A DNA stretch of 27,260 bases, taken from the NCBI GenBank assembly GCA_041497395.1, contig JBGQGN010000001.1, positions 1 through 27,260 of the forward strand, given 5' to 3'. The notes below the pieces were generated by a model, which saw only the letters and a list, made by a program, of their open reading frames with translations, was not told where the DNA came from and did no database searches. Made by a program: the position numbers and the translations under genes. The stretch's first letter is position 1. Each line of letters opens with the position of its first letter. The stretch comes from Candidatus Methylomirabilia bacterium (lineage in GTDB: Bacteria > Methylomirabilota > Methylomirabilia > Rokubacteriales > DASRDR01). Below are positions 2,760-11,081 of this stretch, piece by piece.

Positions 2760-4115
2760 CTAGAACGACCGGATCAGACGCTCCACCCGCTCGTCGTGAG
2801 CCTGGAACGGGTCCTTGCAGAGGATCGTCTCGCGCTCGGGATCGTTCAGCTTGAGGTAGACCCAGTCCACCCGGTAATCCTTGCCCTTGAGGTTCGCCCG
2901 GCGGATGAACTCGCCCCGGAGCCGGGCGCGCGTCGTCTGGGGAGGCGTGTGCTTGGCCACCTCCACCTGCTCGTCGCGCGCCAGCCGATCGACGCGGTCG
3001 TTCCGTGCCAGCAGGTAGTAGACGCCCTTGAAGGGCCGGATGTCGTGGTACTGGAGGTCGATGAGGGACACGCGGGGGTCCCGCCAGGACAGCCGGTGCC
3101 GGGTCATGTAGTCCTCGATCACCTGACGCTTGATGACCCAGTCGACCTCACGGTCGCACTGGTTGGGGTCCGTCTCGAGCCGGGTGAGCATGTCGGTCCA
3201 GCGATCCAGGACGTCGCGCGTCACCGGGTCGGCGTCGACGTGCTGCGCGTAGGCGCGGCAGGCCTCCAGGTACTCCTTCTGGATCTCGAGGGCGGTCATG
3301 GTGCGCCCGTCCTTGAGCTTCACCGGCTCCCGGAGCCCAGGGTCGTGGGAGATGTCCCGGATGGCCTGGACCGGCGACTGGAGGCTGTAGTCCCGGTCGA
3401 AATAGCCGTCCTCGATCATGTCGAGGACCACGGCGGTGGTGCCGACCTTGAGGTAGGTCGCGACTTCCGACATGTTCGAGTCGCCGACGATCACGTGGAG
3501 CCGCCGGTACTTCTCCGCGTCCGCGTGGGGCTCGTCGCGCGTGTTGATGATGGAGCGGGACGAGGTGGTGGCGCCGGAGATCTCCTGGCAGATGTGCTGG
3601 GCGCGCTGCGACAGGCAATAGTGGAAGCCCCGCGGCGTCTGGAGGACCTTGCCGGCGCCCGCGAAGATCTGGCGGGTCACGAAGAACGGGATCAGCGCCT
3701 CGGCGAGCCGCTGGAACGAGACGTCGCGCGACACCAGGTAGTTCTCGTGGCAGCCGTACGAGTTGCCCGCCGAGTCCGTGTTGTTCTTGAAGAGGAGGAT
3801 GTTCCCCGAGATCCCGTCCTCACGGAGCCGCTTCTCCGCCTGGTGCAGGAGGTCCTCGACGATGCGCTCGCCGGCCTTGTCGTAGACGACCAGGTCCATC
3901 ACGTCGTCGCACTCCGGCGTGGCGTACTCCGGGTGGAAGCCGGTGTCGAGATAGAGCCGCGCCCCGTTCTCCAGGAAGACGTTGGCGTTGCGGGCTCCCG
4001 GAATGACCTTCTCGAAGAGGTAGCGGGCGACGTTGTCCGGGGAGAGCCGGCGCTGACCGTTCAGCGTGCAGGTCAGCCCGTACTCGTTCTCGAGGCCGAA
4101 GATGCGTCGCTTCAT
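2760..4115 (-). CDS. pafA: Pup--protein ligase PafA family (451 aa)
   Basis: [11 protein letters not shown] start, [25 protein letters not shown] (catalytic Asp region), [51 protein letters not shown] and CKDPF. ATGA overlap with the prcA stop. Confidence 0.92.
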
Positions 4116-4837
4116 GAGGTCCCCATGGGCCGGCCCCCCTCTGGCGGGTCGGGACGCCCGAGGATCGCGCGGAGCTCACCGTTGGCGACGCGCCGGAACT
4201 TCCGGCGCTCGCGCTTCTGGTCGAGCACCGCGACCTCGAGGTCGCGGTCCGTCAGCGTCTTGTTCTGCGCGACCGTCAGCGCACGGATCCCCAGCCGCAC
4301 CGCCTCGGCGAGGGGGAGGCCCTCTCGGTAGTGCTCCTTGAGGAAGCGGCGGATCTCCTCCGCCTGGCCGCCCATTGCCGCGTAGTTGCGCTCATCCTCG
4401 ATCGAGCCGTCGTAGAGGACATGGTACATCTCGTTCTTCCCGTTGGCGCCGTCGGCCACCTCGACGACCAGCACCTCGACCTCGAACGGCTTGAGCCCTT
4501 CGGTGAAGATGTTCCCGAGCGCCTGGGAATAGGCGTTGGCGAGCGCCTTCGCGGTCACGTCCTCGCGGTGGTACGAGTAGCCGCGGAGGTCGGCGTGCCG
4601 CACCCCCGCGATCCTGAGATTCTCGAACTCGTTGTACTTGCCGACCCCGGCGAAGGCGATCCGGTCGTAGATCTCGGAGATCTTGTGGAGCAGGGTGGAG
4701 GGATTCTCGGCGACCAGGAGCACGCCATCCTGGTACTCGAGGGCGACGATGGACCGGCCGCGGGCGATGCCCTTGCGGGCATACTCGGCCTTGTCCTTCA
4801 TCATCTGCTCGGGCGAGACGTAGTAGGGAAGGGGCAT
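4112..4837 (-). CDS. prcA: 20S proteasome alpha subunit (241 aa)
   Basis: [52 protein letters not shown] and RRKFRR are the actinobacterial-type PrcA signature. Confidence 0.96.
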
Positions 4838-4840
4838 GGA

Positions 4841-5671
4841 TCAGCGTCCCTGGCGCCGCGCCGCCACCACGGCCTCGCACTGGGCTCGGACCTCGGCCTC
4901 GGCGACCTCCTCGAACCCGGCGCGGGTGATCACCTTCACGGTCGGAAAGATCCCGTAGGTGAAATCGGGGCCGCCCGTCCCCACGTCTTCCTCCGCCGCG
5001 TCGACGAGTGCCTCGGCCGCCCAGCGGATCCCGTCGACACGCGACGCGCCCGCCCGGTACAGCTTCTTGAGCGTGGTGCGCGCGTCCTTGCCGCCCGACC
5101 CGGTCGCCGCGTAGTCGGTCTCCTCGTACCGGCCTCCCGTGACGTCGTAGTTGAAGATCCGTCCCTCGGCGCGGCGCAGGTCGTAGCCGGCGAAGATGGG
5201 CACGACCACGAGGCCCTGCATCGCCATCGGGAGGTTCATCCGGATCATCTGGCCGAGCTTGTTCGCCTTGCCTTCGAGCGACAGGCCGTCGCCCTCCACC
5301 TTCTCGTAGTGCTCGAGCTCCGTCTGGAACAGGCGGGCCATCTCGATCGCCGGCCCGGCCGCGCCGGCGATCGCGACCGCGGAGTACTCATCGGTCTTGT
5401 AGACCTTCTCGATCCGCCGGTGGGCGACCTGGTAGCCCTCGGTGGCCTGCCGGTCGCCGGCGACGATGACGCCGTCGGCGTACCGTAGCGCGAGGATCGT
5501 CGTCCCGGTCGGGACGCCCGGCAGGCCGTGGGGATCTGCATGGGGAGCCGCCCCGCTCACGCCGGGGCGCGAGACGAGCAAGTCCGGTGCCTCCTGGCGC
5601 AGGAGATCCACGAAGCTCCGGTTCACGTAGCGCCCGAAGAGACCTTGCCAGGACTCGTGCATGGGGGCCAT
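4841..5671 (-). CDS. prcB: 20S proteasome beta subunit precursor (276 aa; 56-aa propeptide, catalytic Thr57)
   Basis: Propeptide SFVDLLRQEAPDLL, cleavage site G|TTILALRY, AGDRQAT, IEKVY, LSLEGKANKL and ATGSGG. Confidence 0.96.
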   Translation of the reverse strand: MAPMHESWQGLFGRYVNRSFVDLLRQEAPDLLVSRPGVSGAAPHADPHGLPGVPTGTTILALRYADGVIVAGDRQATEGYQVAHRRIEKVYKTDEYSAVAIAGAAGPAIEMARLFQTELEHYEKVEGDGLSLEGKANKLGQMIRMNLPMAMQGLVVVPIFAGYDLRRAEGRIFNYDVTGGRYEETDYAATGSGGKDARTTLKKLYRAGASRVDGIRWAAEALVDAAEEDVGTGGPDFTYGIFPTVKVITRAGFEEVAEAEVRAQCEAVVAARRQGR

Positions 5672-5682
5672 CTGTAGGGGGG

Positions 5683-5688
5683 ATTATA
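5683..5688 (-). promoter_or_regulatory. -10 box TATAAT in front of prcB (internal promoter)
   Basis: Minus strand TATAAT-CCCCCCTACAG-ATG within the 68-bp dop-prcB gap. No SD. Confidence 0.6.
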
Positions 5689-5739
5689 CAACCGGGCTTG
5701 GCCGGGAGCCGCGCCTTCCGACGCCCCTGGTGTCCGGCC

Positions 5740-7236
5740 CTAGACGATGGTCGGCTTCGAGATGTTCTTGAGGAGATCCCGCGCGGTCGGCGACTGGTCG
5801 AACAGCCGGCGCACGAGGGCCTCGGTGCCCCGCAGCGGCTCGAGCATGAAGATCTTCTTCAGCGGCCCCTCCTTGAGGTCGAAGAGGACCGAGTCCCACG
5901 AGGCCGAGACGATGTCCTCGGAGTAGCGCTGGAGGCACATCCCCCGGAAGTAGGCCCGCGTGTCGCGCGGGGGGTCGTTGACCGCTCGCGCGATCTCCTC
6001 GTCGCTCGCGATTCGCTCGACCGCCTCGGACTGCTCGAGCTTGTAGTAGAGGCCCTTGCTCGGCCGGATGTCGTGGTACTGGAGGTCGATCATCGCCACC
6101 CGGGAATCCGTCCAGCCCACTCCGTGCTTGGCGCGGTAGCTCTCGAGGAGATCGAGCTTGATCACCCAGTCGAGCTCGCGGCTGAGCGACATCGGATCCT
6201 GGGCGAGCCGGTCCAGCACGTGCTCCCACCGCACGAGGACGTCCTTCGTCACGGGATCGAGCTCCCGGTCCCGGTAGTAGCGGTGGGCCAGCTCCAGGAA
6301 CTCCCGCTGGAGGTCGATGGCCGTCACGGTCCGCCCGTCGCGGAGGCGAAGCGTCGACCGGCAGGCGAGGTCGCGTGAGACCTGGCGGAAGGCCTGGACC
6401 GGACTGTCCAGCGAGAGGTCCCGGTCGATGAAGTCGTCCTCGATCATGGACAGGACGATCGCCGTGGTCCCGACCTTCAGGTAGTTCGCCACCTCCGACA
6501 TGTTGGCGTCGCCCACGATCACGTGGAGCCGGCGGTACTTCTCGGGATCGGCGTGCGGCTCGTCCCGGGTGTTGATGATGGGGCGGGAATGCATCGTCTC
6601 GAGGCCGACCTCCGTCTCGAGGAAGTCGGCACGCTGGGAGACCTGGTACTCGGTGTACTCGAGGTTGTTCTCCGACCCGACCTTGCCCGCGCCGGTGAAG
6701 ATCTGGCGCGTGACCAGGAAGGGCATCATGTACTGGACGATTCGCGTGAAGGGGCAGCGCCGGTCCATGAGGTAGTTCTCGTGGGTGCCGTAGCTGTTGC
6801 CCTTGGAGTCGGTGTTGTTCTTGTAGATGAGGATGCGCTGCTCGGGCGGGGAGGCCGCTTCCGCGCGCCGGCGGGCCAGGTCGAGGATTCGCTCGCCCGC
6901 CCGGTCCCAGACCACGAGGTCCCGCGGGTTCGTGCACTCCGGGGTCGAGTACTCGGGGTGGGCGTGGTCGACGTAGAACCGGGCCCCGTTCGGGAGGATC
7001 AGGTTGATGAGGCGCGACTCCTCCTTGGACGGGAGCTCCTTTTCCTCGGCGTACTCGAACCCCCGGGCGTCCCTGAGCGGGCTCTCGGCCTCGTAATCCC
7101 AGCGGATGCGTGCGGTCCGGTAGGTCTCGTAGGAGTTGATGAGGAGGAGGGAGGACAGGATCGGGTTGAAGTCCGCCTGGTTGCGGACCGTGATCCCGTA
7201 CTCGGTCTCGATCCCCATCACCTTCAGGATGGCCAT
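5740..7236 (-). CDS. dop: Depupylase/deamidase Dop (498 aa)
   Basis: KVMGIETEYGI, long Dop-loop region, [41 protein letters not shown] and MLEPLRGT. The DHAHPEYS and EPLRGT motifs separate it from PafA. Confidence 0.92.
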   Translation of the reverse strand: MAILKVMGIETEYGITVRNQADFNPILSSLLLINSYETYRTARIRWDYEAESPLRDARGFEYAEEKELPSKEESRLINLILPNGARFYVDHAHPEYSTPECTNPRDLVVWDRAGERILDLARRRAEAASPPEQRILIYKNNTDSKGNSYGTHENYLMDRRCPFTRIVQYMMPFLVTRQIFTGAGKVGSENNLEYTEYQVSQRADFLETEVGLETMHSRPIINTRDEPHADPEKYRRLHVIVGDANMSEVANYLKVGTTAIVLSMIEDDFIDRDLSLDSPVQAFRQVSRDLACRSTLRLRDGRTVTAIDLQREFLELAHRYYRDRELDPVTKDVLVRWEHVLDRLAQDPMSLSRELDWVIKLDLLESYRAKHGVGWTDSRVAMIDLQYHDIRPSKGLYYKLEQSEAVERIASDEEIARAVNDPPRDTRAYFRGMCLQRYSEDIVSASWDSVLFDLKEGPLKKIFMLEPLRGTEALVRRLFDQSPTARDLLKNISKPTIV

Positions 7237-7354: not shown

Positions 7355-9178
7355 CTACAGGTACTGGCCGGCAGGCTGACGCTCCACGGGCCGGTGCTTG
7401 TCCTTGCTCTCGCCCGTGAGCGGCTTGACGTAGACGATCCGCTCGCCCTTCTTCCCCGCGATCTTCGCCCAGTCGTCGGGGTTGGTCGTGTTGGGCAGGT
7501 CCTCGTTCTCCTTGAACTCCTCGCGCACGGCCGCCAGCAGGTCGTCGACCTTGACGCCCTTCTCGGCGGTCGCGATGTACCGCTTGAGCGCAAGCTTCTT
7601 GGCGCGACGCACGACCGACTCCATCATCGCGCCCGAGGCGAAGTCCTTGAAGTACAGGATCTCCTTGTCCCCGTTCGCGTAGGTGACCTCGAGGAAACGG
7701 TTCTCGTCCGCGACGGTGTACATGGCGTCGACCGCCATCTCGATGAGCCGCGTGATGGCCGCCGAGATGTCATCGCCGTGGGGCCCGAGCTCCTGCTGGT
7801 GCATCGGGATGTCCGGCGTGAGGTACTTCGCCATGATGTCGGCCGCCGCCTGACGGTCCGGCCGGTCGATCTTGATCTTCACGTCGAGCCGCCCGGGCCG
7901 AAGGATGGCGGGATCGATCAGGTCCTGCCGGTTGGAGGCGCCGATCACGATGACGTTCTTGAGCCCCTCGACCCCGTCGATCTCGGCCAGGAGCTGCGGC
8001 ACGATGGTCGTCTCGACGTCGGAGGAGATCCCCGAGCCGCGCGTACGGAAGAGGGCGTCCATCTCGTCGAAGAAGACGACGACGGGCACGTCCTCGGCGG
8101 CCTTCTCCTTGGCCTTGACGAAGATCTCGCGGATCTTCCGCTCCGTCTCGCCCACGTACTTGTTGAGGAGCTCGGGGCCCTTGATGTTCATGAAGAAGCC
8201 CTTGATCTTCTCCCCGCGCTTCTCCGAGACCTTCTCCGCCAGGTTGTTCGCGACCGCCTTGGCGATCATCGTCTTGCCGCACCCCGGCGGCCCGTAGAGG
8301 AGGACGCCCTTGGGCGGCGCGAGCTTGTGCTCGCGGTAGTAGTCGGCGTAGAGGTACGGGAGCTCCACCGCGTCCCGGATCGCCTCGATCTGGGACGTGA
8401 GGCCGCCGATGTCCTCGTACTGGATGTCCGGGACCTCCTCGAGAGCCAGGTCCTCGACCTCGCTCTTCGGCAGCTTCTCCAGGAGGTAGCCCGACTTCGA
8501 GTCCATGAGGAGGTGATCGCCGACCTTGAGCTTTGCGGGACGGAGCGGCTCCGCGATGACCGCGACCTTCTCCTCGTCCGCCCGCACCGTGACGACCGCG
8601 CGCGCCTCGTCCAGGGTCTCCTTCATGATGACGACCTCGCCCTGGATCTCGTAGCCCGCCGCCTCGATGACGTTCAGCCCCTCGTTGAGGACGAGCTCCT
8701 GCCCCGGCTTGATCGATTCCCTGGCGATGGACGGGTGGAGGTTCACCTTGACCTTGCGCCCGCTCGACAGGATGTTCACCGTGCCGTCGTCGTTCAGCGA
8801 GAGGAACACGCCGTAGCTGGAGGGTGGCGCGCAGAGCTTGTCGACTTCCTCCTTCAGGGAGGAGATCTGCTCGCGCGCCTCGTAGAGCGTGTTCACGAGC
8901 TTCTCGTTCTGGTTGAAGGCCTGGACCAGCTGCCGGTTCGCTTCCCGCAGCTTGTTCTCCAGGACGACGAAGTCCTTGGGAATCTCCTCGAGCTTCTTCC
9001 GGAGATGCGCGACCTCCGTCTCCATGGCCCGGGCGTGGGCCTGGAGATCCTGGATCTGGATCTCGTACTCCGTCAGGCGACGGCGGTAGGCGGATTCCGT
9101 CATTGGCAGGAATTTTGACAGACCCTTGACACCCTCGGAGTCACGGGGAGGATTCGCCTTCTTTTCGAACTCTTTCAT
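7355..9178 (-). CDS. arc: Proteasome-associated AAA+ ATPase ARC/Mpa (607 aa)
   Basis: Coiled coil ([25 protein letters not shown]), tandem OB interdomains, Walker A GPPGCGKT, Walker B VFFDEMD, pore loop KYVGE, SRH ([16 protein letters not shown]), [13 protein letters not shown] and C-terminal GQYL. The start is set at ATG 9178 after GGGAGG rather than the track start at 9553; ATG 9103 is an alternative. Confidence 0.96.
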
Positions 9179-9265
9179 GGCCTCCCGTCCCTCTCGGCGA
9201 GGACCGCGACCGCGCCGCGTCGGCCGGGCCCGGCGCGGGCGACTCTGTCCCCGCCAGCTTGAGCA

Positions 9266-9295
9266 ACTATAGGCGGCGCCGGAAAAAAAAGTCAA
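9266..9295 (-). promoter_or_regulatory. sigma70-like promoter of arc
   Basis: TTGACT (9295-9290), 18-bp spacer containing a T-run, TATAGT (9271-9266). Confidence 0.7.
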
Positions 9296-9366
9296 GTTGT
9301 GGAGCCATTCCCGCCCCAGTTCGGTCGCGCGGCTGCCATCGCGCTGCCTCCCGACGCCCGAAACCG

Positions 9367-9382
9367 TGCAACGCCGGTGCCA
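9367..9382 (-). promoter_or_regulatory. sigma54 (RpoN) -24/-12 promoter candidate facing arc
   Basis: Minus strand TGGCAC-C-GGCG-TTGCA versus consensus TGGCACG-N4-TTGCW. Exact GG-N10-GC spacing, one mismatch, intergenic. Confidence 0.6.
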
Positions 9383-9447
9383 GCGACGAGTTGGGTGCCG
9401 GTCGAATGGCGCCCGTGCGAGACGGGTCTGCGGAGCGGAGACGTCTC

Positions 9448-9453
9448 TATAAT
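9448..9453 (+). promoter_or_regulatory. -10 box TATAAT, probable leaderless promoter of the SBP gene
   Basis: TATAAT-GGACGCCA-ATG(9462), abutted upstream by the perfect palindrome GAGACGTCTC (9438-9447). Confidence 0.6.
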
Positions 9454-9461
9454 GGACGCCA

Positions 9462-11081
9462 ATGCGCCCCAGGGCTGCTCGACGGCGTCGGTGTCCCCGG
9501 AGTCCGGCGCGTGCGGCATTCCTTGTCAGCTTCATCGTGCTGCTCGCCGTCACCCGCGTCGCCGGTGCGGCGCCGGCCGGCGAGCTTCACGTCGGCGTGC
9601 CGCGCGTTCCTGCGAGTCTGGATCCGGCGGAGGCCACGGCGTCGTCCCAGCTCCTGGCGATGCGCCTTCTCTACCAGGGATTGGTCGCATTCGGCGAGCG
9701 AGGCGACATCGAGCCCGCTCTTGCGACGGCGTGGACCGTCTCCCGCGACGGGCTGGTCTGGACCTTCCGGCTCCGCCAGGACGTCCAGCTTCACGACGGC
9801 ACCCCGCTCGGGCCCGATGAGGTCGTCGCGACCCTCGCCGAGCGGATCTCCGCCGACGAGCCCCCGGATGGCGCGCCCACCTGGGTCCGCCCCTTCCGCG
9901 GCGCGGGGCGGGTCGTCCGGGAGGTGCGACGCGGTGAGGGCGCGTCGGTCCAGATCGTCGTGGGGCAGCCGTACGCGCCGCTGCTCGCGCTCCTGGCCCA
10001 TCCCGGCCTCGCAATCGCCGTCGCGCGGCCCAGCGGCCCGCGGGTCGGGAGCGGGCCCTACCGGGCCGTCGAGCTCACACCCGATCGGCTCGCGCTGGAA
10101 GCGGCGCCGGTCTGGCGAGGGGACCCGCCCCAGAGCGCCCGCCTGATCCTGCACGCGGTCGCGGATGACGTGGCCGCCCTCGCCGGGCTCGCTCCCGGCG
10201 GTCCTCTCCATGCGGCGCTGCTCGCCGCCCCCCCGGCCTGGGCCGCGGTGGGCCTCCAGGTCATGTCCGGTCCGACCCGGCGGGTCGGGCTCCTGGCGCT
10301 TCGGACCGACCGGGGCCTCACCAGCCGCAAGACGGTGCGCCAGGCCGTGGCGCTCGCCCTCGATCCCGCGCTCCTCCGTCCGGCGCTCGGTCAGTGGGCG
10401 GTGCCGCACGCCGCCTGGCTGCCGCCCGGCGCGTGGGCAGCGCGCGACGCCAGCACCCTCCTCTTCGACCCCACGCGAGCGAGGCGCCTGCTGGCGCAGG
10501 TCGCTCCGGTCGACCCGACGCTGACCCTCCTCGCGTCGGACCAGGTCTCCGGGCCCGAGGCTGCGGGCATCGCCGACGCGATCCGGGTCTCGCTGGGCGC
10601 CGTGGGCTTCCGGGTACAGGTGCGGCTGGAGCCACCGGACGCGGCGGAGACCGCCGCGCGGCAGGGCGCGGCGGAGCTGACGCTCCACGAGGAGACGCTC
10701 GAGGTGAACGACCCCGACATCTTTTTCCGGCGGCTCCTGGCCACCGACGGAGCCACGCCCGGGAGCGCGACCAACGTCGCCTTCCTCCGGAGCCCGCTGG
10801 TCGATGGCATGCTCTCGCGCGCGGGCCAACTCGGGTTCCGGCCCGAACGCTTCCGGCTCTATCAGCGGCTCCAGGGGCTCCTCGGCGAGGAGCTGCCGTA
10901 CGTGCCGCTCTACGTCCGGCTCCAGTGGATGGTGGCTCGACCCGAAGTGCGGGGCCTGAACCTGGACTCTGGTGGGCTGCATCGCCTCGAGCGCATGGGG
11001 CTCGAACCTCCGCCCGTGCCCGCGCCGCCGCGAGCTCCACTGAACCCGCTCTCGGGGATGCCGCCGCCCGCACGTCCGTGA
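9462..11081 (+). CDS. ABC transporter substrate-binding protein, family 5 (DppA/OppA/NikA-like)
   Basis: Signal peptide (Arg-rich n-region, [14 protein letters not shown]|A), [59 protein letters not shown] and ELPYVPLY. Pro-rich C-terminal tail. Confidence 0.88.

Follow-up and report, generated by a model that had tools for sequence, protein, structure and literature searches.

In an uncultured soil Rokubacterium, the Pup-proteasome operon arc-dop-prcB-prcA-pafA probably has a true sigma54 promoter at 9382-9367 (minus strand), located distal to a basal promoter of the sigma70 type, as judged from the sequence of the element, its spacing and its conservation. In the model that we propose, two tandem promoters would serve the operon. 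The proximal sigma70-type promoter, with a +1 at about 9258, would provide basal transcription through an 80-nt leader, while the distal sigma54-type promoter, with a +1 at about 9356, would be bound by sigma54 holoenzyme in a closed complex that one of the ~14 AAA+ enhancer-binding proteins (bEBPs) of the genome would remodel to open the promoter. The resulting sigma54 transcript would run across the sigma70 promoter and into arc, with a ~178-nt leader, giving signal-dependent induction. We infer both the activity of the sigma54 site and the extension of its transcript into arc, and proteasome expression in this Rokubacterium is probably switchable by a signal.

The window, by which we mean the whole 27,260-nt stretch of DNA that was analysed, belongs to a metagenome-assembled genome (MAG) of Candidatus Rokubacteria (Methylomirabilota) with 71% GC (335 contigs, 2.94 Mb, completeness 79.6%), and every one of the nearest arc loci belongs to a MAG carrying the label Candidatus Rokubacteria, Rokuibacteriota or Methylomirabilota. 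To our knowledge, Actinobacteria lack sigma54; the paradox that an earlier note on this DNA saw in a proteasome host possessing sigma54 is inapplicable here, since the host is a Rokubacterium and not an actinobacterium. The proteasomal AAA+ ATPase gene, arc/mpa (7355..9178, minus strand), encodes a protein of 607 amino acids with an AAA domain and both OB domains (Prot_ATP_ID_OB_N/C). It starts at the ATG at 9178, preceded by the Shine-Dalgarno sequence GGGAGG (9186-9181, minus strand), and the N-terminus MKEFEKK is kept in 30 relatives. The arc reading frame is open as far as 9553 in this genome; in relatives, a stop interrupts it 3-90 codons (20-40 in most) 5' of the MKEFEKK start, and because this happens upstream of the conserved start we take the region 5' of the arc ATG to be non-coding. 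Four co-directional genes follow 3' of arc as a block (2760..7236, minus strand): dop (5740-7236), prcB (4841-5671), prcA (4112-4837) and pafA (2760-4115). On the other side, a 283-nt intergenic region separates arc from a divergent SBP_bac_5 gene on the plus strand, encoding a peptide/nickel ABC substrate-binding protein (9448..11081 including its TATAAT box; ATG at 9462).

Two promoter-like sequences lie inside the operon. The spacer between dop and prcB carries an extended -10 box, TGTATAAT (5683-5691, minus strand), ~20 nt before the prcB start, which is itself conserved as ATGCACGAG at 5662. The extended -10 box is kept in the window and in 10 of the 12 congeners fetched, with TATAAT variants in three of five sister genera; the box probably marks an internal sigma70 promoter, which may make prcBA-pafA partly independent of arc-dop. 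The part of prcB that encodes the propeptide holds a sigma54-like sequence, AGGCACCGGACTTGCT (5577-5592, minus strand), with matches at 10 of the 12 consensus positions; as 20 relatives do not conserve it and it is probably a chance match, we rejected it as a sigma54 promoter.

The earlier note had described a -24/-12 element, a sigma70-type promoter and two palindromes upstream of arc, and reading the sequence at these positions locates all of them. Motifs, spacing and orientation likewise bear out its proposal that the sigma54-type promoter lies upstream of the sigma70-type promoter and that both are aimed at arc. The sigma54-type element (TGGCAC-CGGCG-TTGCA; 9367..9382, minus strand) reads TGGCACCGGCGTTGCA from 9382 to 9367 and points toward arc. 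Its -24 GG falls at 9381-9380 and its -12 GC at 9369-9368, which gives the canonical GG-N10-GC spacing, and the element agrees with the sigma54 consensus TGGCACG-N4-TTGCW at 11 of its 12 defined positions; the predicted +1 is at ~9356. This is the sole exact TGGCAC-N5-TTGCW in the 27 kb window, where 0.23 matches with at most one mismatch are expected. Across the genome, TGGCAC-Nx-TTGCW has 10 occurrences at x=5 and 0-1 at any other x between 1 and 10, and 18 sites with at least 11/12 matches, the arc site among them, are present at the correct spacing vs 3-8 at wrong spacings. Against the genome background, enrichment is thus confined to the correct spacing, which places the -24/-12 element far above chance. 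By the same numbers, ~30% of the 11/12 sites in one genome could be chance matches, so that the argument is carried by conservation and not by the single site.

The host possesses the machinery that such a promoter would need. A complete rpoN is present as one open reading frame of 487 amino acids (G000:C18) with AID, CBD and DBD domains, in the classical gene order lptB-rpoN-hpf-rapZ, and rpoN was found in relatives too. Approximately 14 bEBP genes are marked across the genome by PF00158 matches (E-values of at most 1e-41); the one bEBP that we examined in full has the architecture REC-AAA+-HTH_8, and none of the bEBP genes lies within the 27 kb window. The top remaining sites mostly sit 10-80 nt before start codons (~210 nt for glnA), and the genes behind them include glnA, hpf, usp, several single-domain response regulators, SBP_bac_5, SLT and lpxC, with annotations such as ribosome-hibernation/sigma54-modulation protein, lytic transglycosylase, LpxC and peptide-binding transporter protein. 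Because these top sites precede typical sigma54 targets, we consider the sigma54 consensus to be in use in this genome. At ~178 nt, the predicted arc leader is long among the sigma54 sites of this genome, with a similar length only at glnA. Apart from the rpoN-adjacent copy of hpf, the genome encodes a second hpf-like gene (Ribosomal_S30AE; G000:C197:1726-2218), which has an exact TGGCAC-N5-TTGCA before it.

Conservation of the element was followed in the arc upstream regions of 30 relatives and of a further 80 loci, which together yielded 86 distinct Rokubacteriales sequences. TGGCAC-N5-TTGCA is present in all 18 family genomes at ~204 nt (193-209) before the arc ATG; the 11 fixed bases are 100% identical in 18/18, against ~50% identity in the 30-nt flanks, and the 5-nt spacer is variable. 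Variants of the element extend across the order. A GG-N10-GC site facing arc scores at least 10/12 in 53 of the 86 regions and at least 9/12 in 80, vs none and two, respectively, in the reverse orientation of the same regions. One Rokubacterial clade carries the variant TGGCAC-CGAAC-KTGCY at -280 to -325 and another carries SGGTAC-RGAAC-TTGCT at about -160 to -245, both of which keep GG-N10-GC. As a control, the same procedure recovers the glnA sigma54 promoter in 17 family genomes. The sister order of Methylomirabilis-like genomes has no -24/-12 site within ~640 nt upstream of arc, where it retains a sigma70-type promoter ~115 nt upstream; since this order possesses rpoN but lacks the site, the sigma54 input appears to be a Rokubacteriales-wide trait. 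Two outcomes that the earlier note named as refuting its proposal, a genome without rpoN and a motif not kept in relatives, were thus checked and did not arise.

This pattern makes it very improbable that the conserved 16-mer is unrelated to sigma54, being instead bound by another DNA-binding protein or matching the consensus by chance. We found nothing that speaks positively for such an origin beyond the 3-8 sites of 11/12 that each genome holds at wrong spacings. Against it, the conserved positions are exactly the bases contacted by sigma54 while the spacer is free, the clade variants preserve GG-N10-GC, the same consensus stands before glnA and other typical targets, and the 16-mer is not palindromic, unlike the sites of most regulators.

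Downstream of the putative sigma54 promoter, the sigma70-type promoter TTGACT-N18-TATAGT (9266..9295, minus strand) has a T-rich spacer and 10/12 matches to consensus, with 0.1 occurrences expected in shuffled sequences. The whole order retains it in the form TTGAC-N18-CCTATA(G/C)T, roughly 90-135 nt before the ATG, and here it lies at -117; its predicted +1 at ~9257-9260 would leave arc a leader of ~80 nt. This 5' UTR (9179..9258, minus strand) is conserved, with the Shine-Dalgarno sequence and a 5'-proximal hairpin whose arms co-change in some genomes. The hairpin, GGCGGGG...CCCGCC, lies at the 5' end of the sigma70 transcript (9225-9256, minus strand), shows paired changes in some congeners, and may act as a 5' stem-loop that stabilises the mRNA.

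In the metatranscriptomes of four studies, contigs of congeners span arc and the 5' UTR as far as 9233-9239. One congener contig (~96.5% identical) extends 17 nt more and then runs into adapter, so that its end is equivalent to 9257, the 9th nucleotide after the -10 box (a single contig, depth ~5). This end fits a sigma70 start near 9258 and is suggestive of one. No RNA contig matched over 9260-9400, a stretch of low depth that is too diverged for the RNA of relatives to match. The contigs therefore point, weakly, to use of the sigma70 start and not to silence of the sigma54 promoter.

Whether a transcript from the distal site would reach arc depends on the interval between the two promoters (9296..9366, minus strand), which we examined by comparing lengths and open reading frames and by searching for terminators and Rfam families. 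No intrinsic terminator was found between the promoters, no Rfam family matches the leader or the interval, and RNAalifold gave no convincing consensus structure. A 15-codon leader peptide (ATG at 9339, stop inside the -35 box) was considered and rejected, since it is present in only 5 of the 18 family genomes and there with unrelated sequences. With no terminator, Rfam family or conserved small open reading frame in the way, a transcript from ~9356 should reach arc.

The geometry of this interval raises another possibility, namely that the element binds sigma54 holoenzyme without being an arc promoter. A stable closed complex would then modulate a neighbouring sigma70 promoter, either that of arc 72 nt downstream or that of the divergent transporter gene ~65 nt upstream, or the site would give rise to a short leader RNA only. 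The spacing of the -12 and -35 boxes would fit this idea, as it is held at 71-72 nt in 16 of the 18 family genomes (60 nt in the other two) despite divergence of the sequence between them, as would a conserved GGAGG-like block located ~15 nt past the -12 box (about +4 to +10 on the predicted sigma54 transcript) and the fact that no long-leader RNA is among the metatranscriptome contigs, in a stretch of low depth and high divergence. In other Rokubacterial clades, however, the element lies at a variable distance of 90-200 nt from the sigma70 promoter, showing that the fixed geometry is not general; no terminator follows the element, and its orientation is always toward arc. We therefore regard pure modulation, or a short RNA alone, as unlikely, and favour an arc promoter at 9382-9367.

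In another Rokubacterial clade, the interval between the two arc promoters is ~170 nt long and contains conserved blocks of its own: a GGAAC motif, which by eye sits in a small hairpin of variable stem, the block GGTGAG-GCGATAGG, and a third block, ATGAAWTCRA, ~40 nt before the -35 box. This ~170-nt interval gave no Rfam match and no alifold consensus.

A sigma54 promoter would usually be expected to answer to an activator bound upstream, and the earlier note had assigned this role to the two palindromes, AGACGGGTCT (9420-9429) and GAGACGTCTC (9438-9447). We do not find support for them as enhancer sites: they are retained only in the 2-3 nearest genomes and are not above chance, with perfect 10-bp palindromes expected ~0.6 times per 280 nt at this base composition by our own estimate. 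The second palindrome abuts the TATAAT (9448-9453) of the divergent gene and so is more likely part of the transporter gene's promoter. No conserved block that could serve as an upstream activator sequence (UAS) was found upstream of the -24 box within the genus, where the available space is only 25-80 nt; in one congener, only ~25 nt separate the -24 box from the TATAAT of the divergent gene. Since some bEBPs work without an enhancer site close by, the missing UAS lowers the claim of a sigma54 promoter without excluding it.

The promoter region of the divergent gene and the arc upstream regions of sister genera hold further elements. The TATAAT of SBP_bac_5 is conserved in the genus 8 nt before the ATG (9448-9464, plus strand), and its mRNA is therefore probably leaderless; a conserved block, GGCGTC-N9-GACGTC, flanks this TATAAT and may be an operator. 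Only three sister genera of the family carry an inverted repeat, CGGCA-NGAAT-TGCCG, ~75-87 nt ahead of the arc -24 box; it is absent from this genus. From its sequence and position, CGGCA-N5-TGCCG is a candidate enhancer in those three genera.

The earlier note had also tied the operon to nitrogen, and an NtrC-type activator acting on the two palindromes (9420-9447) would place the proteasome under nitrogen-starvation control. Several observations are in keeping with this: the genome encodes NtrC-family regulators, glnA appears from its promoter sequence to be sigma54-dependent here, and the divergent neighbour of arc is a peptide-binding transporter protein. In addition, the Pup-proteasome aids Mycobacterium smegmatis under nitrogen starvation, a phenotype cited by the earlier note and confirmed in a review (PMC8223512). 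The glnA locus provides the comparison that bears most directly on the idea. In 17 family genomes, glnA has a conserved sigma54 promoter, SGGCAYG-N4-TTGCT, and ~90-110 nt upstream of its -24 box lie an inverted repeat, TGCCCAC-N3-GTGGGCA (G000:C44:4932-4948), and a second, weaker and half-conserved copy. Because this is the position expected for NtrC sites, we consider TGCCCAC-N3-GTGGGCA a candidate for the NtrC box of Rokubacteria. The box is present upstream of glnA in 17/17 genomes vs none of 18 at arc, where it is absent from the 450 nt upstream even with up to three mismatches. The lack of the glnA box makes control of arc by the glnA-type activator unlikely and, with the palindromes not conserved either, leaves a nitrogen-starvation circuit at arc quite improbable.

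Unlike the actinobacterial loci, the Rokubacterial operon does not include pup. One pup gene, whose product ends in GGE, lies 385 nt 3' of a pair of genes encoding a histidine kinase and a REC-AAA+-HTH_8 bEBP (G000:C219:4304-6650), and a second pup copy is found at C318:1841-2032. We considered the NtrC-type bEBP beside pup as a candidate activator of arc and set it aside: the adjacency recurs at none of the pup loci of 29 relatives. The lead is further weakened by the lack of a sigma54 site at any pup gene, with no -24/-12 site in 30 of 30 pup upstream regions.

The promoter architecture that we describe has well-known counterparts. In E. coli, glnA is transcribed from the tandem promoters glnAp1 (sigma70) and glnAp2 (sigma54, activated by NtrC). 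The arc locus resembles this arrangement in that a housekeeping promoter and a -24/-12 promoter lie ~100 nt apart on one operon, with the prospect of basal and inducible expression; it differs in having the sigma54 promoter in the distal position, in yielding no enhancer site, and in serving the proteasome operon. Sigma54 promoters also drive stress and proteostasis genes in Proteobacteria, including pspA, ibpB, rpoH (P6) and rtcBA. Like these, the arc element would provide an extra inducible input to quality-control or stress genes that have other promoters, in this case in another phylum and for another target, and with no PspF- or RtcR-type activator beside the operon. Compared with the M. 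tuberculosis and M. smegmatis locus (mpa, dop-pup-prcBA, pafABC), the Rokubacterial system has the same enzymes, and pup is present in the genome; it differs in that pup is encoded elsewhere and no WYL/PafBC-type gene was seen. The novelty therefore lies in the target, a sigma54 input to a Pup-proteasome operon, since the promoter architecture itself is already known. Our text searches found no paper linking sigma54/RpoN to a Pup-proteasome system, and a review of pupylation in stress responses, which describes a physiological role of the actinobacterial Pup-proteasome in starvation and stress, does not mention sigma54 control (PMC8223512).

Taken to the level of the order, these data can be read more boldly: in Rokubacteriales, and not in the Methylomirabilis-like order, the proteasome would be under the sigma54 control of a dedicated bEBP, and within the family the 71-72 nt spacing would couple holoenzyme occupancy to the sigma70 promoter. 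We think this full version possible and rather unlikely, separately from our confidence in the sigma54 promoter itself; if true, it would be the first case known of a Pup-proteasome system switched transcriptionally by a signal. The promoter fragment and the ~14 candidate activators provide a handle for finding the signal, and the Rokubacterial sigma54 consensus, together with the glnA box as a putative NtrC site, should be usable for regulon prediction in the phylum. Little is understood of how bacterial proteasome systems are controlled at the level of transcription, and Actinobacteria are the only group in which this has been studied. A conserved sigma54 promoter ahead of the arc operon predicts that, in an abundant, uncultured soil phylum, a specific signal acting via an AAA+ activator turns on proteasome capacity.
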